Notes under the pieces: model-generated
Database searches by the model: none
Told to the model about the DNA's origin: nothing
The model's input: the letters and a program-made list of their open reading frames with translations, nothing else
Shown here: in pieces, positions 3,763 through 45,378 of the stretch
Numbering within the stretch: the first letter of the stretch is position 1
How the letters are laid out: every line of letters starts with the position of its first letter
Made by a program: the position numbers and the translations under genes
Assembly: GCA_963668315.1 (NCBI GenBank)
Contig: OY764216.1
Span: 5,440,001 to 5,504,000 of the forward strand
Direction: 5' to 3'
Length of the DNA stretch: 64,000 nt
DNA from: Spirochaetia bacterium
Lineage (GTDB): Bacteria > Spirochaetota > Spirochaetia > DSM-2461

Positions 3763-4095
3763 ATGTCGATCCGCAGGAGCATGCTGTTGCCGTTGGCCGT
3801 CCTGATGCTTGGCCTGGTCCCCGTTGGGACGACCCTGGCCGGTACGGGGACGAAGGCTCCCCAATCGCAGAGCCAGAAGCAGCAGGCGCCGAAGAAGGCG
3901 CCCCAGAAGGCCAAACGTCCTACCCAAACCGTGGTGAAGCATCACGGCGCGCACCGCTACGTGTGGGTCCGAGTGACGCCCGCCACGGTCAAGTATGAAG
4001 GCGACAGCCCGAAGTCTCAGCAGCCGACCGCGAAGCCGAGCAAGCGTACTCAGCAGAGCACGCAGCAGAGCGTTTCGCAGAAGCCCGGCAAGTGA
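3763..4095 (+). CDS. Small exported Gln/Lys/Pro-rich protein
   Basis: GAGGAG RBS, signal peptide ending TLA, low-complexity Q/K-rich mature region. Confidence 0.8.
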   Translation: MSIRRSMLLPLAVLMLGLVPVGTTLAGTGTKAPQSQSQKQQAPKKAPQKAKRPTQTVVKHHGAHRYVWVRVTPATVKYEGDSPKSQQPTAKPSKRTQQSTQQSVSQKPGK

Positions 4096-4345
4096 CCCCA
4101 GTCGGCGATTCCTTGACGGAACGGTCATGAGGTACCGACCGTTTCGTCGGGGCATGCCATTGAGCGACATTTGGAGGCGCGGGGGCTCGTGAGATTTCGG
4201 GCCCCCCGCCATTACCGCCGTACGCGACTCTACCAAGGAGTCATAAGAAAGATGCAGGGACTTACGATTGATACTGTCGACAACTGTCCGGACTGGGTTC
4301 GGGAATCATCCCCGGTTGCAGCCTTGGGATGAAGGTTGCCGCAAG

Positions 4346-5254
4346 ATGGACAAGCGTTTGCACTCATGGCGCCGCGAGTATTCGTCCAGCGTGTGCGACC
4401 AGGTCTTCGCGGGTGACTGCGAGGACAGCCGCGTGCTTTTTCAACGCCACTGGGAGTGTTGGATTCACCACTGGCAGACGGCGGGGCAGGAGGTTGACGG
4501 CGAGACCGTTGCCGAATCGATCGAGAAGGGCGTGGGCTACGTGGGCGGGGGCGACCTGGGGGGCAACCCCTTGTTTGACCTGGTGCTGGCCCTGGCCGTC
4601 ACTCGCCGGCATAGCAGAGCGGCGTCCCGCTTCCAGGACGAGTTCTTCGAGGAGGCCAAGTGCCACGCACGCAAGCTCGCGGCGGTTTTTTCACGGGAAG
4701 ATCCGCTGGAATGGTGGACCGAGTTCTTCGACGAACTGGGCGGCTTCAGCGGGCGCCCGGCGAAGCTCGATCGCTATAACGGTCGGACCTCGCTCCGCCG
4801 ATGGGTGCCAATTGTCCTGTGGAATTATCTGCGAAATCTGCTGAGGAAGCGGGGGAGGCGAAACGCCAAGGAAGGCACACTGCCCGATACGGTACGAGAC
4901 GCGAAACAGGAGGAGATCCCCGTGGAGGAGCAAGAGAACTTCGCAACGCTTTCGGCCATTTTTCGGTCCGCGTACGAGCAATTGTCTTCGGAAGACGCCA
5001 GCCTGCTTTCTCTGTACTACGACGAGGGATTATCGAATCTGGAGGTCGCCTCTCTGCTGGCGATCAATCCCGGTACGGCGACGCGGCGACGCAAGCGTGC
5101 CGAACAGAGGTTTCGCGAACTGCTTCTTCAAGAGGCCGAACAGCGGAACGAGTCGCTTCAATCCTTGCAGGAGCGAATTGCCTCGGCGGGGGTCGACTTC
5201 GCCAGCCTGCTGTTCAGCGTCGTCGAGAACCGAGACGAGGAGGTGACGTCATGA
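4346..5254 (+). CDS. ECF-type sigma-70 factor with N-terminal extension (resembles the Myxococcales-type family)
   Basis: DLVLALA..., KLDRYNGRTSLRRW region 2, region-4 HTH LSSEDASLLSLYYDEGLSNLEVASLLAINPGTATRRRKRA; start uncertain (4268 or 4346). Confidence 0.85.
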   Translation: MDKRLHSWRREYSSSVCDQVFAGDCEDSRVLFQRHWECWIHHWQTAGQEVDGETVAESIEKGVGYVGGGDLGGNPLFDLVLALAVTRRHSRAASRFQDEFFEEAKCHARKLAAVFSREDPLEWWTEFFDELGGFSGRPAKLDRYNGRTSLRRWVPIVLWNYLRNLLRKRGRRNAKEGTLPDTVRDAKQEEIPVEEQENFATLSAIFRSAYEQLSSEDASLLSLYYDEGLSNLEVASLLAINPGTATRRRKRAEQRFRELLLQEAEQRNESLQSLQERIASAGVDFASLLFSVVENRDEEVTS

Positions 5255-6411
5255 CCGAGCGGCAAACACTCGAAGAACTTGTCCGCCAGGCCTTTCGCAG
5301 CGGGCTGCAGACTTCCCACGATTCCGGGGGCTACCATCCGGTTGATGATGACGACTTTCTCATCGACCTGTCGATCGGTGGCACTTCGGATGCGAAGCGT
5401 GCCGAATTCGTCGACCACCTGGCGCGCTGTTCCTATTGCCGGCACGAAATCGCGCGGATGATCCAGGCGGGGGTGCTTCAGTTGCCGGAAGTCGCGGCCG
5501 AGGAGCCGCCTCAGGCAATCTCGTTGCCGCCGCGGAACGCATCGCGTTGGCACTCCGCCCGAATCCTGCTTGCGGCAGCTGCCGCGATCCTGATCGTCGT
5601 GGGAGTCTCCATACTCTTCATGCCGGGAACGAGCGAATTGGCGCTGGCCCGGAACGACTTGAAGGCCGATCGATACCTTTCGGCCCTGGAACACGCGGAG
5701 GCCTACCTGGATTCGTCGGCGGACGACGCTTCCGGGAGAGAGGAAGCGAAGCAGATTCTCAGCGACGCGGGGTACCGGCAGTCGCTCGAATCGTTGAAGA
5801 AGAGCGACTTCGAGCTCGTGAAGGAATTGGGAAGCCGGGTCGAAGACCTTGCGGGGCGATCGCCGCGGATGACCAATCTGAAGCTGCAGGCGATGCGGAA
5901 ACAAACCGGCTCGTCTGCGTGGCCTGGTCGGGGTGAGTTGACCGAATACGGCTATCGTCTTGACGGCCATTCCTATGCCAAGCCTTTGCCGGTCTTCGAC
6001 GAGAACGTGAAGGCGATTCTCTCGGGATACGAACGTGCCGTAGCCGAGTTCCCCGACGATTCCGAACTGCGACTGAATTACGGGCAGTATCTCCTGGAGC
6101 AGGACGATCCGGAGGGGGCGCGAGCCCAGTTCCTGGAGGCGCAGCGATTGGCCCCGAATGCACTCGAAACGCAGATGGCCCTGGGAATCGTCGCCTTCCA
6201 GCAGAAGCACTTCGATGCGGCCATCGGGTATTTTCGCTCTGTTTTGAACGGTCAGCCCGACAACACGCAGGCCATGCTGAACCTTGCCGTTTGCCATGCC
6301 CGGCTTGGCCAGAAGGCCGAGGCCGTGTCGTGGTTCGAGAAAGTCCGCGACCATCTCGCTCCCGGCCCTCGCCGCGACGAAGTGGACCGTGCCATCAACG
6401 ATCTGAAGTGA
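5251..6411 (+). CDS. Anti-sigma factor: ZAS zinc finger, TM helix, extracytoplasmic TPR domain
   Basis: ATGA overlap with the sigma stop; HLARCSYC (HxxxCxxC); TM ILLAAAAAILIVVGVSILF; C-terminal TPRs. Confidence 0.85.
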   Translation: MTERQTLEELVRQAFRSGLQTSHDSGGYHPVDDDDFLIDLSIGGTSDAKRAEFVDHLARCSYCRHEIARMIQAGVLQLPEVAAEEPPQAISLPPRNASRWHSARILLAAAAAILIVVGVSILFMPGTSELALARNDLKADRYLSALEHAEAYLDSSADDASGREEAKQILSDAGYRQSLESLKKSDFELVKELGSRVEDLAGRSPRMTNLKLQAMRKQTGSSAWPGRGELTEYGYRLDGHSYAKPLPVFDENVKAILSGYERAVAEFPDDSELRLNYGQYLLEQDDPEGARAQFLEAQRLAPNALETQMALGIVAFQQKHFDAAIGYFRSVLNGQPDNTQAMLNLAVCHARLGQKAEAVSWFEKVRDHLAPGPRRDEVDRAINDLK

Positions 6412-6463
6412 CCCTTTGAAGAACCATCTGGCTATCTCTGGACAACCCAATCGAGGTGAAACG

Positions 6464-8134: not shown

Positions 8135-11100
8135 ATGAGTTGCCGATTTTTGATGAACGTGATATTGGCCCTGGTGCTGGCCGTGTTCGCCGATCCGGGC
8201 CGAGCCCTCGGTGACGATTTAGACGACTTTCTCCGCCTGTCGGAGGAGTGCAAGAAGCAGTCGGATGCGGGCGAGTTTGATCGCGCGGAGAAGACAGCGC
8301 TTGCACTCCAGCGGCTGGCTGACGGGGCGTTGGCAGAACTCCCGCTTGCCAGGCTGGGGGCGGCTCGCACGCTGGGGACGATCTACTTCCGCCAAAGACG
8401 CTACGACGAAGCGGAACCGGTTCTGAAGCGAGCCTTGGCGATCAGCAAGGAGGCCTTCGGGAACGACGAGATGGCGGTGGGGGCGTGCCTCAACAGTCTG
8501 GCTCTCGTGTACCACAGCCAGGGACGGTACGACGACGCGAAGCCGCTCTACGAGCAGTCGCTGGCGATTGCCGAGAAGCAGCTAGGAAAGACTCATCCGA
8601 GTGTCGCGGCTGCACTCGGGAGCCTGGCGGAACTACACAGCGAGCAAGGTCGCCTCTCCGACGCGGAGCCGATGCTCGAGCGAGCCCTGGCGATCAACGA
8701 GCAGACTCTCGGCAAGGATCATCCGCAGACCGCCCTCTCTCTCCACAACCTGGCGAAGCTGCACGAAAAGCAGGGACACTTCGCCGAGGCGGAACCACTC
8801 CACCGGCGCGCCTTGTCGATCCTGGAGAAAGCTCTTGGGGAGGATCATCCCTACCTGGCGACGAGCTTGACCAGCCTGGCGAATATGTACTGCGCCCAAC
8901 AGCGGTTCACCGAGGCGGAGCCTCTGTTGAAGCGAGCCCTGACGATATCGGAGGCGGCCTTCGGACGTGACAACCCGGGGGTGGCCTCCGCCCTCAACAG
9001 CCTGGCCCTGCTGTATCAGAGTCAGGGCCGGTACGACGAAGCCAAGGCTTTCCACGAGCGGGCACTGGCCATCGCCAAGAAGACATTCGACGAGAACCAT
9101 CCGAATGTGGCCACGAGCCTCGACAGTCTGGCAGGCCTCTATCACAAGCAACGCCGCTATTCCGAGGCGGAGCCGCTCTACAAGCAGGCCCTGGCGATTC
9201 GCGAGAAGGCCTTTGGCCCCGACCATTCTGACGTGGGCCGGAGCCTCGACAACCTGGCCAGCTTGTACGCGGACCTGGGACGATATGCCGAAGCGCAGCC
9301 GCTTTACGAACGGGCCCTGGCGATCAAGGAAGAAGCTCTGGGCGCGGACCATCCCAGCGTGGCGACCAGCCTGAACAACCTGGCACTGCTGCTGGCGGAA
9401 CGGGCCAACTACGCCGAAGCGGAGCAACTCTTCGATCGATCCATAGCGATCCAGGAGAAGTGCTATGGCAGTGACGGGCTCGGCGTGCTGACCACCTTGA
9501 ACAACCGGGCCACACTGTGTGTCGATCAGGGACGCTATGCCGAGGCGGAGGGGCTTTATCGACGTGCACTGGCCATTGTGGAAGAAAACGTCACGAACGA
9601 TCATCCTGCCGTGGTGTCGTGCCTCAACTATCTGGCGGTCTTGTACCGGCTCCAGGGCCGCTCCTCTGAGGCGAAGGAGCTTTTCCTGCGAGCGCTCGCG
9701 ATCCAGAAGAAGTTGTTCGGGGAGGACAGTTGTGAATCTGCGGAAACACTCGGCAACTTGGCGGGCTTGTATTCGAAACAAGGCCGGTACGCGGAGGCGG
9801 AGCCGCTGTTCCTGCGCGCCATCGCCATTCAGGAGAAGTTCCTCGGCAAGGAACACATTCAATTGGCGATGAACCTCGAGAATCTGGCATTGCTGTATTA
9901 CAATCAAGGCCGTTTTGAGGACGCCGTACTGCTGGTGAAGAGGTCGCTGGCCATCCGCGAGAAGCTGTTTGACGGTACGCACCCCAGCGTGGCCGACAGT
10001 CTCGGCAGTATGGCCGTGCTTCTCAGCACCGTGAATGCCGACACCGAGGCGGAGCGTCTTTATCAGCGATCCCTGGAATTGCACGAAAGCGTTTTGGGAC
10101 CATCGCATCCGCGCGTGGCGGAAGGGCTGGTCAATCTGGCCGGTCTGTATGTGAAGCAGGAACGTTTCGCGGAGGCGGAACCGCTGCTCCGTCGATCGCT
10201 CAAGCTCTGGGAAGAGTCGTTTGGACCAGAACATCCGAACGTAGCTCAGTCGCTCATCTCGCTTGTCGATCTGCATTTGAAGCAGGGACGCGGCCGTGAC
10301 GCGGAACCGCTCGCCGATCGCGCCGTTGCGATCACAAACCGCGAGGGAATTGCCGAAGGGGAACGCGCGGCCAGCTATGCCCGCCGCGCAGAAGCACGTT
10401 GGGCTCTTGAGAAACGGGAAGACGCTGTGGCGGACCTCCGCGAAGCAATGCGTCTGGCCACCCGGATACGCAGGCAAGCGTCGGGGATCGAGCAGCAGCG
10501 GTCCGGCGCGTTTGCGATGCACCTTCATCTGTTTGAGCGGATGGTCTTCTGGCAAACCGAGTTGCACGATTTTGACAAGGCTTTGGAGGCGATGGAGCAA
10601 TCCCGTGCCCAAGGTCTGCAGGACCTGATGCGGGCAAACGGGGTCGATATGCTCGAAGGCCTTCCCGAGGAGACTGCATCGCGTCTGAACAAGGCGGAAG
10701 GCCTGGCTCAAGCGGATGTCGTCTCCTTGCAGAAGCGATTCAAAACGCTGCAAGATCGAACGGACATGGAATCGGATGAAAAGGCCGAAGAAGGCAAGCG
10801 GCTTCTGGAGGAGCTTGCCGCGGCCCGGGAACGGCTGGTTCAGGCCTGGTCGAATATCAAGAACGCCAGCCCCGCTTATCGGCTCCTGCTCGCTGAGGAC
10901 CGACAGCCCGTGCGGATCGAAACCATGGGCAAGGAGTTGGCCGAATCGGACACGCTTGCCCTGCAATATCTGCTCGGTTCGGAGCACGGATTTCTGCTTG
11001 CCTACGGCGGCGGAATCGAACCGATCCTCGTGGAACTGAAACTCAACGACACGCAGGCCTCACTTCTGAACAGCGAAGCGGGACCGCTCACCGCGATTCG

Positions 11101-12175
11101 CGCCCGGGAGATTCTCTTCGGCCAACGCGATCGTGACGGCTTGTTGCACGGATTGACGAGTCACGAGGCCATCGGCGAGGACGCCGGCCCGGATTCAGGC
11201 ACGGTCGACCAATTGAATGTCCTCTGGACCGTCCTGATCCCCGACGAGCGGCTTCGCGAGCAACTCGTCGACGGCGAGACCTTTCGCAGGCTCCTGATCA
11301 TTCCCGACGGCGCACTTGCCCGATTGCCCTTTGAGACGCTTGTCGTCGATGGTCATCGCGTCGATCCCACCTACCTCCTGGACGCCGGTCCGCCGACCAT
11401 GTACGCTCCTTCGGCCACCGTGTTTCACAACCTCAAGCATCGAGAGGTCTCTGCTTCCAAGGGCGAGACGCTGACTGTCGGCGATCCGAGCTACGGTTCG
11501 ACGGACGAGTCCGGGGATCGCGGAACGGTTCCGGGGGAACTTGAAATTGCCAGCCGCTTCGCCCAGCTTGGACGGCTTGCGGATTTGCCTTGGACCGGTG
11601 ACGAGAGCTGCTGGATCAAGGAATCCTGCGAGGACAAGCATGTGCCGGTGGTCCAGTTCACGAAAGAGAAGGCGACCGAGGAGAACGTTCGCAACAGCAT
11701 TCGAGGCCGGTCGCTGGTCCATTTCGCCTGCCATGGGCTGGCGGACGACGAGTGTGGGAACCTGTTCGGGGCCCTGGCCTTTACACCGGTCGATGCGGGC
11801 AATCCGTCGAACGACGGCTTTCTGACCGTAGCCGAGATGTTCGATCTGGACCTGCACGCCTGCGAGTTGGCGATCCTGAGCGCCTGCGATACGAACATCG
11901 GTCCCAATCAGCGTGGGGAAGGCACGTGGTCGATGTGCCGGGGAATGTTGACATCGGGCGCCCGGCGTGTCGTCACCACCGACTGGCAGGTGGCCGACGA
12001 GGCTTCGGCTCACCTGGTGTATGCATTCGTCTATTACCTTCACGAGTGTGAGTCGGGCGAGCCGGACTACACCGAGTGCCTGCGGGATGCCCGGCTTTCG
12101 ATTCGGAACCATGATAATCGGCAATGGCGGCACCCGTATTTCTGGGCGCCGTTTGTGTTGATGGGACCGGAGTAG
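8135..12175 (+). CDS. Exported TPR-CHAT protease 1
   Basis: Signal peptide; 42-aa TPR array (HPxVAxSLxxLA); CHAT HFACHG, LSACDT, HPYFWAPF. Confidence 0.95.
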   Translation: MSCRFLMNVILALVLAVFADPGRALGDDLDDFLRLSEECKKQSDAGEFDRAEKTALALQRLADGALAELPLARLGAARTLGTIYFRQRRYDEAEPVLKRALAISKEAFGNDEMAVGACLNSLALVYHSQGRYDDAKPLYEQSLAIAEKQLGKTHPSVAAALGSLAELHSEQGRLSDAEPMLERALAINEQTLGKDHPQTALSLHNLAKLHEKQGHFAEAEPLHRRALSILEKALGEDHPYLATSLTSLANMYCAQQRFTEAEPLLKRALTISEAAFGRDNPGVASALNSLALLYQSQGRYDEAKAFHERALAIAKKTFDENHPNVATSLDSLAGLYHKQRRYSEAEPLYKQALAIREKAFGPDHSDVGRSLDNLASLYADLGRYAEAQPLYERALAIKEEALGADHPSVATSLNNLALLLAERANYAEAEQLFDRSIAIQEKCYGSDGLGVLTTLNNRATLCVDQGRYAEAEGLYRRALAIVEENVTNDHPAVVSCLNYLAVLYRLQGRSSEAKELFLRALAIQKKLFGEDSCESAETLGNLAGLYSKQGRYAEAEPLFLRAIAIQEKFLGKEHIQLAMNLENLALLYYNQGRFEDAVLLVKRSLAIREKLFDGTHPSVADSLGSMAVLLSTVNADTEAERLYQRSLELHESVLGPSHPRVAEGLVNLAGLYVKQERFAEAEPLLRRSLKLWEESFGPEHPNVAQSLISLVDLHLKQGRGRDAEPLADRAVAITNREGIAEGERAASYARRAEARWALEKREDAVADLREAMRLATRIRRQASGIEQQRSGAFAMHLHLFERMVFWQTELHDFDKALEAMEQSRAQGLQDLMRANGVDMLEGLPEETASRLNKAEGLAQADVVSLQKRFKTLQDRTDMESDEKAEEGKRLLEELAAARERLVQAWSNIKNASPAYRLLLAEDRQPVRIETMGKELAESDTLALQYLLGSEHGFLLAYGGGIEPILVELKLNDTQASLLNSEAGPLTAIRAREILFGQRDRDGLLHGLTSHEAIGEDAGPDSGTVDQLNVLWTVLIPDERLREQLVDGETFRRLLIIPDGALARLPFETLVVDGHRVDPTYLLDAGPPTMYAPSATVFHNLKHREVSASKGETLTVGDPSYGSTDESGDRGTVPGELEIASRFAQLGRLADLPWTGDESCWIKESCEDKHVPVVQFTKEKATEENVRNSIRGRSLVHFACHGLADDECGNLFGALAFTPVDAGNPSNDGFLTVAEMFDLDLHACELAILSACDTNIGPNQRGEGTWSMCRGMLTSGARRVVTTDWQVADEASAHLVYAFVYYLHECESGEPDYTECLRDARLSIRNHDNRQWRHPYFWAPFVLMGPE

Positions 12176-12216
12176 GCTCTGCTCTGGCATTTATACATTA
12201 CCGGAGGGATGCTACG

Positions 12217-15200
12217 GTGAAAGCGATTTGCGTTGGCACTGCCTTACAAGTGATCGTGTTCTTGAACTTCGTTTCGCCGCTCGCGGGAGCCGAGTGGGAG
12301 ACGTTGAACGAACAGGCGTTGGAGCTGCGTGCGAAGGGCAAGTACGCGAAGGGCCTCGACGTGGCTGACAAGGCTGTCAAGAGTGCGAGAAGAGCATTCG
12401 GCGGCGATAGTCCGGAATACGCGATTTCTGTGAACACGCTTGCCATGCTCCACCTCTCCCAGAAACAGTACGCGCAAGCAGAGAGGCTTTTCAAGGATTG
12501 TCTTTCAGTCTTGGAGAACAGTCTAGGCAGGAGCCACCCGGAGCGAATGAACGTTCTGGTGAATCTGGCAGGTTCCTACGTCGAGCAGCGTCGCTATGAT
12601 GAAGCGGAACCGCTCTACCGGGAGGCGATCGACACATGCATACGGAACAAGCATCCGTTCGCGGAGCAAGCCACATTAGGGCTCGCGTGGCTGCGATTCG
12701 TACGAGGTCAATACGATGAGGCCATACGCGAGTACGAACGGGCCAAAGGCCTTCGTTCGGCTCGGCTTGGACCAGATCATTCTGACGTCAAGGCGATCGA
12801 AATGTCCATTGCGGGAGTGCGTGACAAGGCGAAGAACGCAGAGAAGATGTCGGGTGGAATTGCGGCATACAAACGTTTGGAACGTGAGTATATGCAGTAT
12901 CGTGACCGAGGAGAGTTTGAGAAAGCGCTTGATGTTGCCGCAAAGGTGCAGAAGCTGGCCGAGAACGACTTGAAGAGTCAGCCCGCCTATTTCGGCACTG
13001 CGCTTATGATGCGAGCGATGGCAAACGGTGCTCTTCGTCGTCAGGGAGATGCCTTGAAGCTGTACGAAGAGGCCCAGCCGATTCTGGAAGAATCGCTCGG
13101 ACCGGACCACGGCTACGTCTTGACTTGTGTTGACGCCCGTCTTTCTTACTACATACAGCACGGTCGCGAGGCCGACGCTGTGTCGCTGTGCGATAGGGTG
13201 GTGTCGTTGATTGAGGACGCCTACGGACCAGATGATCAACGATTGGGAAGCCTCCTCTGCCGTCTGGCAGGTCTACACATCCAACAGGATCGGCTTGCCC
13301 AGGCCGAAGAGGTTTACGGGCGTGTGGTGAATCTCTTCGACGAACTGTCTCCAGAAGACCCGCTCATCGTGGCTTCCGCGTTGCGCGGCCTTGCAAGCGT
13401 TGCCAGGCGTCAGTGGCATTTTGATGATGCGGAAGCCCACTTGCGGCGTGCGTCCAGGTTACTGGCCGAGGCGGTTCCCGAACCCAAATGGGATATCGCG
13501 GCCAACACGGAGTCTTTGGGAGCGCTTTTCGCGGAACAAGGGCGTTACACCGAGGCTGACGATTGCTACCAACAGGCCCTGGCGATCATCGAGGAGGTCA
13601 ACGGGCCGGACGACATCCTCATGGCCCCGCCACTTGCCAGGCTTGCAGATACGAACATCCTTCGCGGCCGATATGGGAAAGCTGAGAGCTTCTGCCAGCA
13701 GGCTCTCGCAATCAACCTCAAGGTGCTCGGGCCCAAACATGCAAATACAGCCAAGTGTGTTGGAACATTGGCACAAATTTACGCAGATCAGGGTCTGTAT
13801 GCAGATGCGGAATCGCTCTATCGGCGTTGTCTGCCGGTATTGCAGGCGGAACTGGGACCGCGCCATGCCGACGTGATATCGGCACAAGTGAATCTTACGC
13901 TGCTTTATTGGGCGCAAGGAAGACACGAAAAGGCAGAGGAGATGTTGGGGGAACTACGCGATGTGCCCGACACTTTCGAGACGCATACCGGGTTAATTCA
14001 CGCCATGAGCCTTGTGTCTTCGAGCCAAGGACGCTATGCCGAAGGCACCAAGCACGCGCAGCAGGCACTCACCATGTGCCGAGAGGCGCTGCCACGCGAA
14101 CACCCGCGCGTGGCAACAAACCTTCAGACCTTGGGTATGATCCTTCAGCGTCAGGGGCGATATGTCGAAGCTGAACGGTTTGTACGCGAAGCTCTGGAAA
14201 TCCAAGAGGGTGTCTTTGGGAGGGGCAACCATATGATTGCCGCAGAACTCGTAAACCTGTCGCTCGTTCTCACTGGTTTGCAGCGTTACGACGAGGCGGA
14301 ATCGCTGTTGGATCGCGCCGTGAGATTCGTCGATGAAAGTGACTCTATGAGCGCCGATGTCGCGGCCTACGTGCTCAAGAGTCGTGCGCACTTGTACTGG
14401 AAGACGGGACGACAAAAGAAGGCAGTCACTGATCTGCGGCGAGGTATTCAGTTCATCTTCCAGATGCGAGGACAGGCATCGGGATCAGAACAGGAGCGTG
14501 CGACGACTTTCTCAAGATCGGCTAGTGCATTTGAGACGATGCTTTCATGGCAAACTCAGCTTCAAAACCTGCCGGAAGCGTTTGCAGCGATTGAGGGTTT
14601 CCGCGCACAAGGCCTCCAGGACTTGATGCAATCCAACGGCACGGACCTCCTCGAAGGTCTGCCCGACGAGACGGCGGCGAGTCTGCGCCTGGCCGAACTG
14701 GATGCGCAGGCCGAGGTGGCATCGCTGCAGAAGCAACTCGAAGTCCTGCAAATCCGCGCCGACATGGACTCTGAAGACAAGGTGCGGGAAGGAAAGCGGC
14801 TGATTGAGGCTCTTGGGGAGGCGCGCCAGGGTCTCGTGCAGGCCTGGGCGGATATCAAGAACGCCAGCCCCGCCTACCGGATGGTCGTGACGGAGGATCG
14901 AGAACCGGTGCGGTTCGAGGCGTTCCAGCAGGAACTTGGAAACTCCGATACGGTTGCACTGCAATACTTGCTCGGTGGAGAAAACGGTTTTCTGCTTGCC
15001 TACGGCGGCGGAATCGAACCGGCACTGATCACGTTGGAGATCACTGACACTCAGTCCGAGGTGTACGGCTGCGATGCCGGGCCGCTGACGGCTGCTCGCT
15101 TTCGGCAGGTTCTTCTGGGCAGCAAGGATCGGCCGGGACTTCTCCGTGACTTGACGAACTTTGGGGAGGTGAGTGATGAAGGTGTGCCGTCGAAGGATGC

Positions 15201-25403: not shown

Positions 25404-25865
25404 ATGAGAGACAGATGGTTGTTTGTGGCTGCCGGACTCCTTTTGGTCGCTTGCCTGGGATGTTCGTCCGAACCGCCGGCGGACTCGAAGACGGGGCAGA
25501 AGCCCGACCCCCCTGCCCAGGAGCAAGCAGTTCCCTCCGCGCCTGGTGACGAGCAAGGCCAGGTCGACCTGAAGCAGGCTCCCGTGGCTGTGCCCAGCAA
25601 GACGGGCCAGGAGCAGTCGGAGGTTCCTCCCGCACCAGGTGACGGACAAGAACAGGTTAGTCAGAAACAGGCTCCCGTGGCTGCGTCTGCCAAGGCAGGT
25701 TCGGATCAGCTGAAGATCCCTGCTGCACCTGGTGACGGGCAAGGTCAGGTTAGTCAGAAACAGGCTCCCGTGGCTGCGCCCGGCAAGTCCGCCCCGGAAA
25801 AATCAGAAGCTCAGCCCGCGCCGGGCGACCAGTCGGGGGCAGCGAACGAGAAGCAGACGCAGTAA
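25404..25865 (+). CDS. Lipoprotein with 31-aa Gln/Lys/Pro-rich repeats
   Basis: GGAG RBS; lipobox-like CLG-C; PGD repeats starting at 25542, 25635, 25728, 25821 (93-bp period). Confidence 0.8.
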   Translation: MRDRWLFVAAGLLLVACLGCSSEPPADSKTGQKPDPPAQEQAVPSAPGDEQGQVDLKQAPVAVPSKTGQEQSEVPPAPGDGQEQVSQKQAPVAASAKAGSDQLKIPAAPGDGQGQVSQKQAPVAAPGKSAPEKSEAQPAPGDQSGAANEKQTQ

Positions 25866-36035: not shown

Positions 36036-37493
36036 GTGATAGAATCAACTGTCCTGCACCGAGGCGACCGGCGGGGTGCGAGCCGTTGCTTCATGGCCGT
36101 CTTCATTCTGGTCTCTCTGCTCGGTCCTGCCGCATTACACTCTCAGGATCAGCCTGCCGGGGCGGACAGCCTGACCGTCGGACGCCGCTGGGCCGTGATC
36201 GTTTGCGTCAACGACTATGACGACGCCGGCATCCCGGATTTGCGATTTTGTGAGGCCGACGGGCAATTGTTGGCCGGCGTCTTGAGCGAGGAATGCGGAT
36301 ACAACCCGCGCGACGTCGTAATGCTGGTGAGCGGCGCCACGAGCAGTTCGATGCGTCCCACGCTCGCAAACATTCGCACGGAACTCCGGTTTCTTGCGCG
36401 GCGTGCCCAAGCGGATGATGTTGTTCTCGTCTATTTCTCCGGGCATGGCTACCTGGACGACAACGGGCGGGGCTACCTTCTGCCGGAAGACTGTCGGCGA
36501 GACAACCTCGAGGGCTCGACCCTTCCGACGGCTGAGTTGCGTGAATGCCTGGCCGATTGTCCTGCTCGCGGCAAGTTGCTCGTCCTGGACTGCTGCCATG
36601 CGGGAGGCAAGGGCTTGCAGGTGGATCCGACCGGCGAGGAACTGGGCACGGTGTTTCGGGAGACGCCTGGACTGCTCACGCTTGCCAGTTGCCGGGCGGG
36701 GGAGCGATCCTGGGAATGGGAGCACAAACGCCACGGCCTTTTCAGCTACTACCTCGCCGAAGGACTCCGCGGCGAGGCCGACACGCAGTATGACGGTCTT
36801 GTCGACAGCACGGAACTCTACAGTTACGTGCGCGGCAAGGTCATCTCGACGGCCCAGGAAATCGACGCCGCCCAGACACCGGTCCAGGTCGTCGGGCCCG
36901 GCGAGGTGCCCGTATTCGCCTTGGCCAAGGTGAAGCCCAAGGTCTATTTCGAGGACTTTTCCGGAACTCAGCCCGGCATGGCTCCCGAGGACTGGAAAGG
37001 TCGGGGGCTGACCGTTCAGGAGTTGGGCGGCCAGCGGGTGTTGCAGGCCCGCGACCTCGGCCAGGGCTTTGTCGACTTGCCCGCCCAGCGGATCACGGGG
37101 GATTTCTTTGTCGAGTGTTTCTTCGACACCAACGGCTACGTGAACAAGCCTCGCAGTTTCGAGTTGAGTCTGTTCACGAAACAGGGCTCGCCGATTGTCC
37201 GGGTCGCCGTACTGGATCGCTACCCGAACTGCGACGTTACCGTGAACAATCGCCACCTCCGTGCGCCGAGACTCAACCGGAAGAACAGGCTGTACATTAC
37301 TCGCTCAGGTCGCGGCCTGAGCGTGCAATTGAACGGCGAGCCCGTCGAAGCCACGCAAATATCCGACGCCGATCTTCCCGGCCTGCGACTGGCCCTGGGC
37401 AACAATCGCGACGAATACGGCCGCGTGGACACCAGCAAGTTTCCCACCGTCTACTCGATCCGCGTTGGACCACTGGCTGCGGACGGAGGTTGA
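36036..37493 (+). CDS. Exported caspase-like protease with C-terminal beta-sandwich (possibly ConA/LamG-like)
   Basis: AGGAAGGAG RBS; YFSGHG, VLDCCHAG, HGLFSYYL. Confidence 0.9.
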   Translation: MIESTVLHRGDRRGASRCFMAVFILVSLLGPAALHSQDQPAGADSLTVGRRWAVIVCVNDYDDAGIPDLRFCEADGQLLAGVLSEECGYNPRDVVMLVSGATSSSMRPTLANIRTELRFLARRAQADDVVLVYFSGHGYLDDNGRGYLLPEDCRRDNLEGSTLPTAELRECLADCPARGKLLVLDCCHAGGKGLQVDPTGEELGTVFRETPGLLTLASCRAGERSWEWEHKRHGLFSYYLAEGLRGEADTQYDGLVDSTELYSYVRGKVISTAQEIDAAQTPVQVVGPGEVPVFALAKVKPKVYFEDFSGTQPGMAPEDWKGRGLTVQELGGQRVLQARDLGQGFVDLPAQRITGDFFVECFFDTNGYVNKPRSFELSLFTKQGSPIVRVAVLDRYPNCDVTVNNRHLRAPRLNRKNRLYITRSGRGLSVQLNGEPVEATQISDADLPGLRLALGNNRDEYGRVDTSKFPTVYSIRVGPLAADGG

Positions 37494-37585: not shown

Positions 37586-40500
37586 ATGAAGTCAAGCACG
37601 TTCTGCCGGCTGTGTTTGATCGCCGGAAGTCTGGCGGGTGTTTTCGGGCTGAATTCGGGCTTGCCCACGCGGGCAGCCGAGTCGACGGAGGAATCACCAC
37701 CGGTCTTGCTGCGTTGGAAGCTCCAACCCGGAGAAGAGCTGCGTTATTCCCTGCAACAGACGGATGTCGGACTGTCTTCTTTCGGCAGCATGCACGAAGA
37801 AGCAACCGAGGAAGGTCGACGTGTTATGAGTGTCGACATGTCCTGGCATGTTGACGAGGTCCAGTCCGAGAAGGTTGATCTCTCCATGCAAGTCCGGCGA
37901 CTTCGATTCTGCATGGAGCAACTCGAAGGAACGACGAATGAGCCAGGTGATGCCTCCAAGTCGCTCTCCGTCCGGTTTGACTCCCAAACGGAGGACTTCA
38001 AGCTCCGCCTCGATCCGTCCAAGCGGCACGAGCCGTTGCTGATCCCACAAAATCAGGCAGGAAATGCCCTGCAAGACTACGCCAGGCTGTGTGGCCAGAA
38101 ATCCCGCTTCACACTCTCTCCTCGCGGAGACGTTCTCCAAGCCGAGTTGCCCCAGGGACTGAAACGCCGGTTCCAACTTGGCGAAGGAGGCGAACAAAGG
38201 TTCCTGGCTCTGCAGTTTGATCCGCTGGCAAGGCTGACCAGTTGTTTTACACAAGGAGACTTCGCGTCCGTGGCCCTGGGGTCGTTCGTTCCCCCTGGCC
38301 TGCAAGTAACAACGAACCGGGGACCAACGGCCTTCTCGCAAATCTCGTCACTGCTATTCGGGTGCCTGCCGAGCCACGCGGTTCGAATCGGCGATCGTTG
38401 GGAGAGGGAGACGTCCATGGAGACGATGTTGTTCAACGCCACCACAACGTCTCATTTCACCTATCAAGGTCTTGTTGAGATGGACGGCCGGGCGATCGAC
38501 AAGATCTCCATGGAGATGGAGTTACATCTCACGCCGTCTCAAATGGTGGCAAACGCGAGCCCTGGAGCACAGCTTGGCGAGTACTGGAAGAAGTTCAATC
38601 AATTCGTGACCTTTCAACTGAATGGCACGTGGTGCTTCGATCGCGATCGAGGGCGTACTGTTGAAATGATGATCGACGTGAACACCCAGTTCCGGGTTGA
38701 CCCGCAAGAATACAGCGGCGCGTATGCATCGGTGATGGCCAACCAGGAACGGCAGTCTCGTCACAGGATTCACATCGCGGAGGGCGCAAGCGGTGAAGAA
38801 GAACTTAAGATGCCCGCCTATCTTTCGGAAAATCGACCGCAATTGGTCGACCTACGAACACAACTGAAGACGAGATACGAGGAACAGTTCCAGGCAGGGC
38901 AGTATGGGCAGGCGGCGAAGACAGCAGACGAGCTCTTTCGACTGCACCAGCGTTTCATCCATTGGACGCGTCAAGGCAATCGGGACAATGGCGACGGGAT
39001 CCCCGCGAACCACTTTCTGAGCCAAGGTTCGGAGTTTCTAGAAGGTTTGGATTGGGCGGCGCAGGCCCTGATGATGCGAGGGGACGCCGAGGCGAAGATG
39101 TCTCGTTTCGCCGAGGCAGAACGCTCCTATCTCGATGCTGAACAGGGGTTACGGTCGCTCCGAGGATGGTGGAGCCCCGAACTGGCCGCCACTTATCAGC
39201 GTCTGGCTGATCTGTCCGCGGAACAGGAACACTGGGCCAAGGCACTCGAATACCAGGAAAGGTCCGCCAATATTCGTGAGACCCTCCTCAAGCCCACTGG
39301 GGAATTAGGGCTGCGGTTTCACGTCGTCATGGATGAAACGAGTGGGGCAGCAGGCCGACGGCCTTTCGGATTCCTGCGGATTTCCGAGGTGGCTCCCGGT
39401 TCCGCGGCGGCTACGACCCTGGGCCTGAAAGTTGGCAACACCATTGACTTCATCCAGGCAGACGGCGGAGTCCTGCTCAACTGCGGCGGCGAAGTCCGGG
39501 GGAACGAGGCAGCGGAGTGCCTCAACAGCTTGCTGAGCGGGCCTGCTGGGACGAAGGTCGCCGTCCGAGCCCATTACGGTCGCAACGCAGCATCCGAGTT
39601 CCAATGGCTCGAACGTGCAGCCCGTGAAGACCACGAGCCACCCTCCGAAGCCGCGGTGAGCAATCTGGTCTCCTGCCTGCTTCGCATGGCCTCGCTCTGC
39701 CGACACGCCGGCGATTTGAAAAGAGCGAGAAGTTCCCTGCTCCGTGCAGCCGATCTGGCCGACAGCGTTGACAATCTGGACGGCGGATCGGCGGCAACTC
39801 GCTACGAGTTGGCATGCGTGTTGCAGGAAGAGGGCCGATCCGAAAAGGCGGAACAGCTCTTTCGGGAATGCGCGGAACAACTGAAAGAAGAGACACAGGA
39901 TCGGGAGTTGTACGCTTGCGTGCTGGCGAGTTGGGCAACATTGGACCAACAGGCAGGCAACACGGAAAAGGCCGTACAACGAATCCGGAAAGCCGCATCG
40001 ATCCGAACGGAGTTATTCGGCTCGAAACATCCGGAAACGGTGGCCACCCATTGGCAACTGGCAAGGTTTCTCCTTGAGTCGAAGGCCGCAAACGAAGCCT
40101 CCCGGGTCCTGGAAGCAACGCTCGATGAAATCGACGACAGTGCGGGCAGCTTCACCCTAAAGGCCAAATGCCTGCAAACATTGGCGGAAGCGAAATGGGC
40201 TCTGCAGGAACGTGACGCAGCGATCGACCTCCTCCGCCAAGCCATGAATCAGGCCGAACTTCAGCGCGGGGCAACCAAGGGAGGGGACTCGGTCCGGGTC
40301 AGCCTGTTTGGCCGATTTGCAGGTGCTTATGAGCGGATGGTCGAGTGGCAGATCGCTCGCCAGCAACCTGCGGAGGCTTACGAGGCCATCGAACGCTCCC
40401 GCGCACGATCCCTTATCGACCATCTGCAGTGGTACGGCGTTGACCTCCTGCAGAGCGTGGACGACTCGAATCTGAATGTCATGCGTCTCTTGGGGGGAGA

Positions 40501-42259
40501 GGAAGACCCGGTGCTCGACTCGCAGGCCTGGCAGCGTACGAAGCAACTGGAAGACACAGCTCAAGACACGGAACGCTACCGCCAACTGTACGCACAGTCG
40601 CCGCTCCGCGGCCGAACGGAACAAGAACAACTCCGCGAGGAAATCGCCGAGCTCCGCCGCGGCGGGAGGCGGCATGCTTCCTACGATGATGAAACTCGTC
40701 TGCAGCGTCTTTCCATTGAATACGCCTCTATGAATCTGCCAAAGGAGCTGCGACGCGATCTGTTCTACCTGTTTCGCGACGAGTTCTCGCGATTGTGCGA
40801 CGAGACCATGCGCATCGGGCGCGAACGCCGGCAATCACGCCCACAGTACTGGGAACAGATCGCGAATAACTGGCATCCTCTCTCGATGGAAGAAGTTGTC
40901 AATCTCGTTCGAAGCAGCAAAGCCCTCTACGTGCAATATCTTGTCGGCTCGGAAGGCACCTACGTGCTCACCGTCGCGCCCGACGGAAAGACGGAAACGC
41001 AAACGCTCCGCATTCGGGATCAGGAAGGCTCCATTCTCGGGGTGCCTGTCGGGCCCTTGACGCGAGAGAAGCTGCGGACAATTCTCCTGGCTCCCGACTG
41101 CGGCGTATGCCGCTTGCTGGCGTCACCGGAAAAGGCACTTGAGGCAACCAGCCGGTTGGCGGCGCTCTGGTCGCTGTTGATTCCCGACCACGCCAAACAG
41201 CTGCTACGTAGCGGCAGTCCTGAAGAGATCATAGTCATCCCCGATGGCCTGCTCTCAATCCTCCCGTTCGAAGCACTGGTGATGAACACGGCTCCCAGTA
41301 CGGAGTACCTTCTCGATTCAGGCATTCCGCTTAGCTACTGCTATTCGGCCACCCTCCTGCAATTGCTTCGGGACCGGCCGGAGGCGACGTCGTTGCCCGG
41401 GGTTGAATCCGTCTTGTCCGTCGCGGACCCCGCGTACACGAATTCAACGCCTGGGGTCGAGGACGGAAACGACCGTAATGGCACACCGGCCACACGTTAC
41501 GTGCTTGCGGGAGGCTCATTGGCCAAGTTGCCTTTCACTGCCGTGGAGTCGCAATGGGTTGCCGACGTCTTTCGCGATGCGGGGAGGCAAACCGAGTCCC
41601 TGCTCGGAAATTCCGCCACGGAGAACGCGGTGCGTCAGAGGATCGCAGGTCGTCGCTACGTCCATTTCGCCTGCCACGGTCTGGTCGATGAATCGGCGGG
41701 AAACCGCTTTGCCGCGTTGGCAGTCACCCCTGGAACATCTGCACGCCTTTCCCGAGGAACCCTGCGGCAGCGTTATGAGAGTCTCATATCGCCCAGACTG
41801 TTTCCGCACCTGGACTCCGCCGGCTTGATGCCTGCTTCGCTTCGCGAGGAGGACGCCTACGGCGATGAGCCGGGCGAGGTGTCCCGTAGCGAATGCGACG
41901 GCTTCATCACTCTCGACGAGATATGCCAACTGAACCTGCACGGGTGTGAACTCGCAATTCTTAGCGCCTGCAATACGAACTTCGGTCCGGAGCAAACCGG
42001 AGAAGGTGTTTGGTCCCTGTCTCGCGGCTTCTTCGTAGCCGGCGCTCGTCGTGTCGTGGCAACCAACTGGTCAGTCGATGATGAGGCCGCCTCAAGTCTC
42101 GTAAGTTACTTTTGTAGTTGCCTCGCTCAGGGCGAAGTGTTTGGAGACGCTCCCAACTACGCGAAATCACTGCATCGCGCGAAGAAATGGCTGCGAGATC
42201 AGAAAGAATGGGAGAGCCCGTCCTTCTGGGCGCCCTTCGTCCTGATGGGGCCTGGCTGA
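37586..42259 (+). CDS. Exported multidomain CHAT protease 6: DUF6263-like beta domain, TPR, PDZ-like insert, TPR, CHAT
   Basis: LRWKLQPGE N-terminal domain; GELGLRF...ISEVAPGSAA...GLKVG...GPAGTKV PDZ-like segment; HFACHG, LSACNT. Confidence 0.9.
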   Translation: MKSSTFCRLCLIAGSLAGVFGLNSGLPTRAAESTEESPPVLLRWKLQPGEELRYSLQQTDVGLSSFGSMHEEATEEGRRVMSVDMSWHVDEVQSEKVDLSMQVRRLRFCMEQLEGTTNEPGDASKSLSVRFDSQTEDFKLRLDPSKRHEPLLIPQNQAGNALQDYARLCGQKSRFTLSPRGDVLQAELPQGLKRRFQLGEGGEQRFLALQFDPLARLTSCFTQGDFASVALGSFVPPGLQVTTNRGPTAFSQISSLLFGCLPSHAVRIGDRWERETSMETMLFNATTTSHFTYQGLVEMDGRAIDKISMEMELHLTPSQMVANASPGAQLGEYWKKFNQFVTFQLNGTWCFDRDRGRTVEMMIDVNTQFRVDPQEYSGAYASVMANQERQSRHRIHIAEGASGEEELKMPAYLSENRPQLVDLRTQLKTRYEEQFQAGQYGQAAKTADELFRLHQRFIHWTRQGNRDNGDGIPANHFLSQGSEFLEGLDWAAQALMMRGDAEAKMSRFAEAERSYLDAEQGLRSLRGWWSPELAATYQRLADLSAEQEHWAKALEYQERSANIRETLLKPTGELGLRFHVVMDETSGAAGRRPFGFLRISEVAPGSAAATTLGLKVGNTIDFIQADGGVLLNCGGEVRGNEAAECLNSLLSGPAGTKVAVRAHYGRNAASEFQWLERAAREDHEPPSEAAVSNLVSCLLRMASLCRHAGDLKRARSSLLRAADLADSVDNLDGGSAATRYELACVLQEEGRSEKAEQLFRECAEQLKEETQDRELYACVLASWATLDQQAGNTEKAVQRIRKAASIRTELFGSKHPETVATHWQLARFLLESKAANEASRVLEATLDEIDDSAGSFTLKAKCLQTLAEAKWALQERDAAIDLLRQAMNQAELQRGATKGGDSVRVSLFGRFAGAYERMVEWQIARQQPAEAYEAIERSRARSLIDHLQWYGVDLLQSVDDSNLNVMRLLGGEEDPVLDSQAWQRTKQLEDTAQDTERYRQLYAQSPLRGRTEQEQLREEIAELRRGGRRHASYDDETRLQRLSIEYASMNLPKELRRDLFYLFRDEFSRLCDETMRIGRERRQSRPQYWEQIANNWHPLSMEEVVNLVRSSKALYVQYLVGSEGTYVLTVAPDGKTETQTLRIRDQEGSILGVPVGPLTREKLRTILLAPDCGVCRLLASPEKALEATSRLAALWSLLIPDHAKQLLRSGSPEEIIVIPDGLLSILPFEALVMNTAPSTEYLLDSGIPLSYCYSATLLQLLRDRPEATSLPGVESVLSVADPAYTNSTPGVEDGNDRNGTPATRYVLAGGSLAKLPFTAVESQWVADVFRDAGRQTESLLGNSATENAVRQRIAGRRYVHFACHGLVDESAGNRFAALAVTPGTSARLSRGTLRQRYESLISPRLFPHLDSAGLMPASLREEDAYGDEPGEVSRSECDGFITLDEICQLNLHGCELAILSACNTNFGPEQTGEGVWSLSRGFFVAGARRVVATNWSVDDEAASSLVSYFCSCLAQGEVFGDAPNYAKSLHRAKKWLRDQKEWESPSFWAPFVLMGPG

Positions 42260-42415: not shown

Positions 42416-44487
42416 ATGCCGTTGTGCGTACCTCTTTGGCTGGCCTTGATCCTGCTGCTCACGGCAGAAAGCCAGGCTCAAGTGACAATACGCGGTACGC
42501 GACTGATTGCCCCGCCTGAGGAAGATGTCACGGCTGTCGATCTGCAGGGTGCCGAGGCGGTCGTCAGAAGTCCCACCCTCTATCACTCGATTGCATTTCC
42601 GAAAGAGCCCAACCGTCTTGTGACGGTGGATCGCGACATCGAAATCTGGGATCTGGCCTCGCGCAAAAAGGTGGACCGCTGGAAACTGGACGATCCGGCA
42701 AATGCCCGCGACGATTCAACAAATCTGTCGAGAATCATGTCGCAACTTCAATCTGGGGCAACACGTTCCCTTGCCGTGTCGCGTGACGGGCAGTTCCTGG
42801 CATGTCTTGGGGCGCAACTGTGCGTGTTTCATGCGGCGACGGGCAAAAACCGTCTGGAAAGGCGCCCTGGCTGCCGCCGTCTTCCAGGATAACCAAACGC
42901 CCATTGCCTTCTGGCCCACGCGACCGTGGCTGGTAACCCAGGGCCCGGGCAGCGGTGGAACGGTTGTCGATTTCCAGACGGGTGACCAGGTTGCGGTGGT
43001 CGGGCCACCACGTCCCAGGGCCGGTTCCTCCGAACCTCGCCTGGCTGTGTCGGGGCACTATGGCCGAACTTGCGCGGTCTCTCCAACGGGGCGTGACCTG
43101 GCGTTCATCGATTTCGAGATCTTTCCAGGCGGCTGCGTCCGGTTCTGGGAACCGAATGAAAAGCAACTCCTCACCAAGGCCATACGGACCTCCGAAGACA
43201 TCGCCTCCATTGCCTATTCGCCCGACGGCAAGACGATTGCCGCGCTGGTCGGGAACGGGGATTGTCATGACATCGTGTTGTTCGACGCAGAGTCATGCCG
43301 GCGGTACGCCACCCTTGCCCATTCACGCAGCACTCGCCACCTGGTCTTCTCCCCCGACGGGCGCTGGCTGGCGACGCACTCGGCTGGAGATGTTCTCATT
43401 TGGGATGTGAACAGTCGTCAGATCATTGCGGTGTTGACCGGTGCTGTCGGCTGGAGTCCCTGCATAGCCTTCTCTCCCGATTCCCAGTGGTTTGGCGCGG
43501 CGGACGGCGGCGTGTACCTCTGGTCGCTGGCGGAGATCGCAACTGACAAGATCGAGGCGGTCGACACGAAACCACCGCTGGTTGGGCACGCCCACAATGC
43601 GCCGGTTACCGATCTCCACTTCGCGCCGGCGTCCAACACACTCTATTCCGTTGGGCAGGACGGCGCGTTGAACGCCTGGAACTTACCCGGCGGCGACGCC
43701 TGCTGGTCGCAACAGGAGGAACGGCTTGAACTAGCCCGTGTCACCGCTTCTTCCGATGGAAAGCAGCTTATTGCCGCCGGGGCCAGGCGCGGCCGGGGTG
43801 TGATTCGATTTCACGATCCGCAACACGGGACGCTTGGACGCGAAATGACGCGCCCCGCGGGCATGGTGTTAGCGCTCGCGTTGGCTCCAGGCGACCGGCA
43901 ACTTGCCTTCGGAACGAGCGAAGGGGAGATCGCCGTTTACAGCATGGAAGACGAAGGGATCCAGGACACGTTCCAGGCCAAGGGCGCCCCGATTTGGAGT
44001 CTCGATTACTCGCCCGACGGACGCCTGCTGGCCTCTGCCGGCTGGACACGACATGTCGAGTTCAACGATCATACAACTCTGGGACACATCCGCAGGAACT
44101 ATCGTTGGGAAACTCGCAGCTCTCCAGGGAACCGTCTACGTCGTGCGGTTTTCTCCTGACGGAAAGCAATTGGCATCCGGAGGAACGGATGGCGTCGTCC
44201 GCGTGTGGGACGTATCTTCCAGAAGGCTCATCAAGAAGATGGGCGATACCAGCGGAAGTGTCTTCGACTTGGCGTTCCAGCCAGAGGGAGATGCACTCAT
44301 TTTTGCGGGAGCGGACGGTCTTCTCCACCGTTGGCCGCTCAAGACGCGCTCTGCCCGGCAGCTATTGCCCGGACTGGGCGGCTACGGTTTCACCGTGGAA
44401 ATCATGCCCGATGGCCTGGCTGTCCTGGCGGCTGGCGCCGATCGCTCGCTTCATCGCAGGACATTGCCGACACTCTCTGCAGAATGA
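42416..44487 (+). pseudogene. Exported WD40 beta-propeller protein with two frameshifts
   Basis: WD40 repeats (SPDG, IWD) continue across three frames; shifts at the A5 run 42845-42849 and near 44045-44075. Confidence 0.8.
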
Positions 44488-44533
44488 GGCAGGGGCCATC
44501 CACCGGATGTGCCACTGTGAGGGAACCTTGATC

Positions 44534-45378
44534 ATGAGAAGAACATCCTTGATTCTGGCCTGTCTACTTATCCTCTATGCCGGATGCGCATCAAGCCTGA
44601 ACGCCCAAGATGCCGAGACGCGAAAGCTCCAACACCCCAAATGGCGTTTTGGCGTTCCGGTGACGAAGGAGAACGTTCAGTCGCGCTCCCATATTGCAGT
44701 TGTATCTCCCGATGAGCGCATGATCGCGGTAAGAGTGTATCCCCCACACAACGTTGAGTGCATCGTTCTCTTCGACAGGAAGACCGGACGCGAGATCCGA
44801 CGACTTGCGACACGAGAGGAAGTGGGCCACCAATTCGGTTGGTTGAGTTTCTCGCCCGATTCGAAGCACCTATTGAGTTGGTCCGGCCAAGAGTTCCGGT
44901 ATTGGTCCGTTGAGACGGGTGAGGTTCTTCTGAAGCACGGTATCCGGCGCAAAGGTCCGATTGCCGGCCCTCCCATCTTCCACCCGACGGGCAAGTACTT
45001 CGTCTCGTGTGTTGGGAGTGGCGCCCAAGGCAACCTCTTGCTCTTCTGGGATCGTTCCACGCTGAAACACGTCGGATCGTTCAATCCGAGAGGGGAATAC
45101 CCTTGGTTCGACTGTGATCAAGCAAGGGAGATGAGCTGTCGTACGAAAAGCCTGCATGGGAGCACGGCGCATTCTGCAAGGCGGTTCTGGAAGCTCTCGC
45201 GGGAAAAGCAGATGCTGACGACAATGGGAAGGTCACCATCAAAGAGCTCGTGGACTATGCTCAGCTGCGAGTGGCCGAACTAACCGAAGATCGTCAGCAT
45301 CCGCATCTGCCGAATTTGAACGATTTCGCGCCGGACCTTGTACTTGCTCACGTCGTTGAACAGGCGGGGTCGCCTTAG
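44534..45378 (+). pseudogene. WD40-caspase gene with a large internal deletion
   Basis: Signal peptide and a few WD-like repeats, then out of frame 45118-45378 SSKGDELSYEKPAWEHGAFCKAVLEALAGKADADDNGKVTIKELVDY...QHP (C-terminal half of a C14 domain). Confidence 0.85.

Follow-up and report, generated by a model that had tools for sequence, protein, structure and literature searches.

A planctomycete locus combining an ECF sigma/anti-sigma pair with predicted exported caspase-type proteases

The locus and the organism it comes from

The window analysed here (64,000 nucleotides, positions 5,440,001 to 5,504,000 of contig OY764216.1 in assembly GCA_963668315.1, labelled as a Spirochaetia bacterium) carries a locus in which a sigma factor of the extracytoplasmic function (ECF) type and its anti-sigma are followed by eleven proteases of clan CD, six with a CHAT domain and five of family C14. 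The conserved core of this locus is the sigma, the anti-sigma and a predicted exported protease, usually a C14. The features are listed below by window position and strand; the number of the open reading frame (ORF) is given where it is used in the text, and the coordinates of the one entry that lies outside the window are those of the assembly.

G000:C1:5,429,773-5,440,290, minus: left operon beyond the window, with WD40-PDZ-C14, C14 and WD40-C14-C14 genes
341..1342, minus: membrane-anchored, probably coiled-coil protein, first gene of the left operon
1373..1400, minus: copy 1 of the candidate ECF promoter, ahead of the left operon
1659-3130: gene of the beta-lactamase family (serine hydrolase), situated between the divergent operons; reads as frameshifted through an assembly error; no promoter copy
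3677..3704, plus: copy 2 of the candidate ECF promoter, ahead of the main operon
3763..4095, plus: 110-residue signal-bearing Gln/Lys-rich protein (Gln+Lys 0.32 of the mature part)
4252..5254, plus: ECF sigma factor; extra base near 4301, absent from the contigs of three runs
5251..6411, plus: anti-sigma with ZAS domain (HxxxCxxC), one transmembrane helix and two TPR blocks split by the Lys244 loop
6464..8059, plus: DUF4384-C14 protease, divergent within the core metacaspase-like clade (ORF 6416)
8135..12175, plus: TPR-CHAT 1 (ORF 8135)
12217..16173, plus: TPR-CHAT 2 (ORF 12124)
16245..20312, plus: TPR-CHAT 3 (ORF 16122)
20347..23982, plus: TPR-CHAT 4 (ORF 20347)
24108..25226, plus: C14 protease (ORF 24105)
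25404..25865, plus: predicted lipoprotein with Gln/Lys/Pro-rich repeats
25972..26784, plus: 270-residue signal-bearing protein, weak DUF3108, CT021-like; opens a conserved three-gene block
26784..28817, plus: transglutaminase-elicitor domain (Cys-His kept), Pro/Ser/Gly/Thr linker, DUF4384
28870..30345, plus: DUF4384-C14 metacaspase-like protease of the core clade, with conserved linker Lys376 and Lys404 (ORF 28711)
30445..33618, plus: TPR-CHAT 5 (ORF 30412)
33864..36002, plus: C14 protease, long C-terminal region of no named family (ORF 33738)
36036..37493, plus: C14 protease, C-terminal domain unassigned (ORF 36036)
37586..42259, plus: TPR-CHAT 6, weak DUF6263 N-terminal region (ORF 37586)
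42416..44487, plus: WD40 protein with hydrophobic N-terminus; extra bases at 42845 and 44043 are assembly errors
44534..45378, plus: remnant gene, a signal-like start and propeller-like stretch out of frame with a caspase C-terminal tail
45589..45616, plus: copy 3 of the candidate ECF promoter
45824..45955, plus: 43-residue hydrophobic Cys-containing ORF
45995..46022, plus: copy 4 of the candidate ECF promoter, ahead of the radical SAM gene
46109..47269, plus: radical SAM/SPASM peptide maturase, PapB/CXXX-repeat-like, below family cut-offs
47390..48178, plus: three near-identical 61-residue Cys-x3 repeat precursor peptides (47390, 47692, 47993)
48314..50146, plus: ABC exporter

The clan CD assignment of the eleven window proteases, made earlier from the sequence alone together with their His/Cys motifs, is confirmed by profile matches and alignments. 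Pfam finds CHAT in the six long TPR proteins (E 1e-50 to 6e-53) and C14 in ORFs 24105, 28711, 33738 and 36036. The fifth C14 (ORF 6416, gene 6464) matches NCBIfam NF047832 with E 8e-8, below the cut-off, and groups with the other C14s in a tree. The His-Gly and Cys motifs are kept in all eleven (6/6 CHAT, 5/5 C14), and a caspase fold was found for the 28870 protein. All six CHAT genes of the assembly sit at this locus. The extent first proposed, 3763..45378, proved too narrow, as three further C14 genes lie just beyond its left edge and bring the clan CD total to 14 genes (11 in the window and the three to its left) plus one remnant. In the WD40-C14-C14 gene of the left operon, Gly replaces Cys in one of the two C14 domains. 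As for the PDZ sensors that had been suggested, domain searches detected none in TPR-CHAT 6, and the left operon has a weak match (E 4e-4). The single-base indels at window positions 2005, 3723, 4202, 4301, 42845 and 44043 are assembly errors, being absent from short-read contigs, and a broken sigma, beta-lactamase or WD40 gene is thereby ruled out. The gene at 44534-45378, in which the contigs show no indel, is a genuine remnant with WD40 and caspase-tail parts.

The last 196 kb of the assembly (from G000:5,428,914) is planctomycete DNA misjoined to the chromosome of another organism. The assembly has a mean GC content of 51%, and from about 5,428,900 to the contig end it is about 60%, a different composition class. 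The junction at G000:C1:5,428,913/914 (L001:7913; L013:2313/2314) falls inside an ORF with two unrelated-looking halves. Public contigs from four runs (X1-X4, two samples of one study) were aligned on it. To the left the contig depth is 183, 189 and 60 in X1, X3 and X4, and to the right 17, 17 and 4, and on both sides the contigs continue into other sequence; in X2 most of the right side is covered at a depth above 70, and the left at about 2. None of the contigs in these runs bridges the junction. Since there is no bridging contig and both sides run on elsewhere, the locus, which the sequence-only reading had called an island of about 42 kb, is not an island of the labelled genome, and horizontal transfer into the labelled host is ruled out with it. 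Whether it is an island relative to that host cannot be judged, because the DNA right of the junction is another organism's; within the 196-kb piece there is no clear GC step (0.58-0.62 at the locus, 0.58-0.64 in the piece). The named relatives nearest to the locus proteins are Thermoguttaceae and other Planctomycetota, and the sigma was found in none of 400 other genomes of the labelled phylum. The misjoin puts a wrong host label on findings in these 196 kb and would mislead claims of gene transfer. One further C14 match lies in the host part of the assembly (G000:C1:1,409,003-1,409,623).

The conserved core in related loci

Relatives were obtained by CHAT and anti-sigma queries plus a whole-genome search; sigma-profile scans of metagenome and genome contig collections gave no matches. 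In the order around a Thermoguttaceae genome, 22 of 401 genomes matched the sigma profile, with 23 matches. Twenty regions were taken together with locus L014, and two weak matches were left out. Three of the twenty carry generic ECF sigmas with a partial profile match and served as controls, and with two metagenome loci added the set holds 20 family loci.

The anti-sigma adjoins the sigma in 17 of these, is absent in two (L103, L105), and one locus ends at the sigma. Where there is sequence past the anti-sigma (15 loci), a clan CD protease lies within three genes in 13 (12 C14, one TPR-CHAT) and in none of the three controls, so the earlier expectation that the pair is kept beside predicted exported clan CD proteases elsewhere holds in 13 of 15 informative loci, counts that are not independent because the loci are kin. 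In 11 of the 12 C14 loci the protease beside the pair belongs to a single clade (support 96/92), whose members are standalone or fused to DUF4384. The protease comes directly after the anti-sigma in most loci, and the other genes vary.

The CHAT array had been taken as the core of a cascade. It is ruled out as the core partner, with a CHAT beside the pair in one of the 13 loci, and L014 alone among 80 CHAT loci has the sigma/anti-sigma family. In one relative the sigma, the anti-sigma and the DUF4384-C14 protein each come from a 15,318-base contig, and if this is one contig, the array of four CHATs cannot fit between them. Five similar CHATs share 70-89% nucleotide identity over the last 1.35-1.6 kb and have TPR halves without a blastn match, which fits duplication with divergent sensor parts. 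We take the six TPR-CHATs for a local expansion in which the catalytic half has stayed constant and the putative sensor halves have diverged.

A block of the 270-residue protein, the transglutaminase-DUF4384 protein and a DUF4384-C14 protease recurs in five loci. The 270-residue protein has two weak matches among 401 phylum-wide genomes, and the transglutaminase keeps Cys-His where it could be aligned to PDB 3TW5. Its linker holds a 12-bp tandem repeat of 27.8 copies (window 27723-28056) that encodes Gly-Thr-Pro-Ser, a copy number taken from this assembly, as short-read contigs break there. Two small proteins of the window that are predicted to be exported have Gln+Lys fractions of 0.32 and 0.24, against a maximum of 0.19 among 799 control segments. 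No Gln/Lys-rich small exported protein was found in 13 related loci (five with the transglutaminase; ATG starts only), which rules such proteins out as its general partner.

Proteases, anti-sigma loop and candidate promoter

Export was scored with a hand-written signal-peptide heuristic and not with SignalP; its threshold was set after the values were known, and protein starts were picked by ribosome-binding-like sites or signal likeness. It is positive for 11 of 11 window proteases and for 9 of 1807 internal segments (null 0.3-0.5%), in accordance with the signal-like N-termini first noticed, and for 90 of 120 DUF4384-C14 homologues of the 28870 protein. The window proteases are thus predicted to be Sec-exported, and a cleavable signal and an uncleaved anchor are both compatible with the scores.

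By sequence and fold, the solved proteins nearest to the core C14 (28870) are metacaspases from fungi and plants (Yca1, AtMC4) and GSU0716 of Geobacter, with which it has an acidic loop after the catalytic His in common. Among its 120 homologues His309 and Cys366 are kept in all, Lys376 in 115, Lys404 in 118 and Lys/Arg169 in 112; Lys376 and Lys404 fall within, or border on, a linker that the model gives with low confidence. Asp252 and Asp364 are invariant, and we take them to be the residues behind P1 Arg/Lys specificity and Ca2+ dependence. Together with the metacaspase-like acidic loop, they suggest that the core C14 has both properties.

The sigma matches TIGR02937 above the cut-off. Its start is placed at 4252 because the indels in this region are assembly errors, and a 74%-identical homologue agrees. 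The anti-sigma has 386 residues with an HxxxCxxC motif (a zf-HC2 match at E 0.01, short of the cut-off), a single transmembrane helix predicted at residues 102-122, and two TPR blocks, so the description of a ZAS-transmembrane-TPR anti-sigma and a sigma with the proteases co-oriented behind them was right. It has TPRs only and no protease domain, the contigs of three runs have no indel in the gene region to window 6600, and a fold search gave generic TPR matches only. The loop between the TPR blocks is non-helical, has the lowest confidence of the outer domain and contains a conserved Leu-x-x-x-Gly-Tyr-x-x-x-Gly. Four to five places past the conserved Gly, 18 of 20 anti-sigmas have a basic residue (15 Lys, 3 Arg) and two have Met, which is also the P1 residue at which Csx29 of the type III-E CRISPR system cuts Csx30. 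In most homologues the residue after the basic one is other than Pro, often Gly, Ser, Ala or Asp, as in the caspase linker sites, and in L014 the basic loop is kept though the first TPR block is deleted.

Some family members depart from this pattern. The anti-sigma homologues at L110:15953-17128 and L111:16024-17079 lack the zinc-binding His/Cys and have the loop Met for Lys/Arg, and the linked caspase is kept. In L106, L108 and L109 the anti-sigma loops read Ile/Ala-Val-Ala-Arg and the linkers of the adjoining caspases have similar Arg-ending stretches, a hint of matched tags. At L105:303-3854 the family sigma has a long C-terminal extension and no anti-sigma homologue; the gene after it has an N-terminal motif which we take to be like that of oxidoreductases that bind flavin adenine dinucleotide.

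The 5.6-Mb assembly holds exactly four copies of the pattern GCGCAAY-N15-GACYAT, all of them intergenic, co-oriented and at this locus. The copies precede the left operon, the main operon, the 43-residue ORF and the radical SAM gene, which is followed by three Cys-repeat precursors and the ABC exporter; a looser form gives 3 matches against 0.13 expected. That the sigma would amplify the response had been proposed before, and the motif copies add a candidate feedback loop to that proposal. The family itself has a motif that shares this -35 and has CGTC as its -10. It stands between -200 and +150 relative to where the sigma ORF starts in 10 of the 20 family loci and in none of the three controls (background 0.02 per 350 nucleotides), and L098 and L110 have second copies before linked genes. 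This family motif gives independent support for the candidate promoter.

The peptide cluster is ruled out as a conserved neighbour, the maturase being present in one of five related genomes and there on another contig than the sigma. In the L014 genome a related radical SAM peptide cluster (L148, G401:C45) has an upstream GCGCAAC-N16-CTC with a weak likeness to the site before the sigma of that genome. A TetR-like regulator and an RND efflux pair at window 50434-55941 have no promoter copy and are probably unrelated.

How the locus may work and how it compares with known systems

We hypothesize that an exported metacaspase-type C14 is the first (site-1) cutter of the anti-sigma and that the sigma, once released, would direct transcription of the entire set, a reading to which we give an even chance of being right. 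TPR, WD40 or DUF4384 modules would sense envelope damage, a change in Ca2+ or a foreign protein, and C14 zymogens would open themselves, or be opened by the TPR-CHATs, at their conserved linker lysines. Next, the basic loop that separates the TPR blocks of the anti-sigma would be cut or engaged, the anti-sigma would pass to intramembrane proteolysis, which in a DdvA-type system depends on RseP, and the sigma would drive both protease operons, the transglutaminase and the radical SAM peptide cluster in a positive feedback. The active site of AtMC4 is blocked by a lysine of its linker, and cleavage triggered by Ca2+ lifts this block (bioRxiv 2020.03.09.983940). DdvA/DdvS and a SAVED-CHAT that cuts a PCaspase may serve as precedents for such a chain. 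The sequence-only reading had regarded the best-characterised bacterial CHAT/caspase systems as cytoplasmic, which does not hold for DdvA with its periplasmic TPR-CHAT (PMC11506125), and the extracytoplasmic idea therefore has a precedent.

Several points weigh against the cutting hypothesis. The pair stands without a protease in two of the 15 informative loci (L107, L113), and the sigma without an anti-sigma homologue in two of the 20 family loci. Lys244 of the window anti-sigma precedes Pro, as does the Lys of its two closest homologues, and Pro after the cut residue is disfavoured by most proteases of clan CD. The loop alignment has 20 rows, five of them close kin, and two positions were allowed for the basic residue. 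A lysine tag as a locus-wide feature is weak by simple counting: its long form was reached in 19 of 300 shuffles for the non-CHAT proteins and in 58 of 300 overall, its short form in 3 of 300 overall. Thiol proteases in an oxidising periplasm need protection. The promoter pattern was drawn from the four window sites themselves; the family motif has another -10 and another spacing than the window sites, all four of which it missed, and in four of five genomes its genome-wide count is close to that of the controls, and another ECF sigma of the source organism could read the window motif.

Some of these points would suit a rival which we hold to be unlikely, namely that the proteases are output only. 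The anti-sigma would sense through its own TPRs and be cut by a site-1 protease of the host, and the sigma would make exported proteases against foreign or damaged proteins. A promoter before the protease operons, pairs without an adjoining protease and the Lys-Pro site of the window clade would all be expected, but such an output would hardly keep a protease right after the anti-sigma in most loci while other genes change, or keep the basic loop where the first TPR block is lost.

The Lys-Pro site could also mean that the loop sits in the caspase active site as a bait that is not cleaved. The two proteins would then quiet each other and signal by the release of the partner. The blocked active site of AtMC4 (bioRxiv 2020.03.09.983940) and the protein inhibitor in the Haliangium cascade (bioRxiv 2023.06.23.546230) speak for it, but the non-Pro residues after the basic one in most homologues, so like those of the caspase linker sites, make it improbable.

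A more far-reaching version of the cutting hypothesis, quite improbable in our view, is a wound response outside the cytoplasm that resembles clotting or complement. Variable TPR-CHAT and WD40 sensors would open lysine-tagged metacaspase zymogens, which would cut the anti-sigma and activate the transglutaminase to cross-link Gln/Lys-rich exported proteins as an envelope patch, and the freed sigma would amplify the cascade and make a thioether peptide antibiotic. Least probable, and very much so, is a kit for feeding or competition, with surface or secreted proteases and a peptide antibiotic but no sensing of damage or infection: the varied N-terminal modules on a constant catalytic half, the peptide cluster behind the same promoter motif and a defence scan with no known defence gene beyond generic caspase and TPR models (a nicking-enzyme match falling on the low-complexity linker of the transglutaminase) would fit it, but clan CD proteases are typically narrow processing enzymes, and the known sigma-linked relatives regulate defence.

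In the type III-B system of Haliangium, a SAVED-CHAT cuts a C14 PCaspase, which then cuts the sigma factor PCc-sigma (bioRxiv 2023.06.23.546230). CHAT and C14 are encoded with a sigma in both cases, which makes it a model for any cascade here, but the trigger in Haliangium is cyclic oligoadenylate through SAVED, the system is CRISPR-linked and the caspase cuts the sigma itself. The type III-E Csx29/Csx30/CASP-sigma system is alike in that the enzyme cutting the anti-sigma is a TPR-CHAT, the C-terminal domain of some Csx30 proteins is DUF4384 and the sigma has sites in its own locus (PMC10028731; bioRxiv 2022.08.17.504292). It differs in being RNA-guided through Cas7-11 and cytoplasmic, with Csx30 described without a transmembrane ZAS architecture. 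ECF54 sigmas are found near TPR-CHAT genes, and some ECF25 anti-sigmas have zinc-binding and DUF4384 domains (PMC7826278). ECF54 is however actinobacterial and listed with no putative anti-sigma, and the word caspase has no match in the part of the supplement searched (PMC7826278). No SAVED domain, Cas7-11 or Cas gene was found among the scanned window ORFs.

The solved metacaspases Yca1, AtMC4 and GSU0716 resemble the core C14 as described above, and we know of no signal peptide, DUF4384 or sigma link in any of them. A literature search over titles and abstract openings (without subscription papers, a planctomycete ECF survey and several supplements) found no trio of sigma, TPR anti-sigma and separate exported caspase. 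To our knowledge, almost nothing is known about the role of signal-bearing bacterial caspases; a 2012 paper pointed to signal-like N-termini among prokaryotic metacaspases (PMC3501461).

The closest system is DdvS/DdvA of Myxococcus xanthus. DdvA is a single-pass ZAS anti-sigma with a periplasmic TPR-CHAT, for which self-cleavage is proposed and which is called the only characterised anti-sigma of its kind (PMC11506125); the site-1 cleavage is still a proposal because the signal of DdvA is unknown. Both systems have an ECF sigma and a single-pass ZAS anti-sigma, and in both, here by prediction, the TPRs are extracytoplasmic and a clan CD protease outside the cytoplasm is the proposed site-1 cutter. 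DdvA carries its CHAT in the anti-sigma itself, whereas the window anti-sigma has no protease domain, the proteases are separate and signal-bearing, and the core partner is a C14. DdvA controls genes of CRISPR and of the cyclic-oligonucleotide-based anti-phage signalling system (CBASS) (PMC11506125), whereas the candidate regulon here consists of proteases, transglutaminase and the peptide cluster. No CBASS or CRISPR-Cas gene was found among the window genes scanned, the rest of the source genome being outside that scan. The locus offers a minimal conserved unit with a predicted cut loop, zymogen sites and a promoter, which makes the site-1 cleavage of an anti-sigma by a separate caspase directly testable. 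As predicted from its genes, it is a conserved split version of the DdvA idea, centred on a putatively exported metacaspase, that would work like DdvS/DdvA without being a member of that system.

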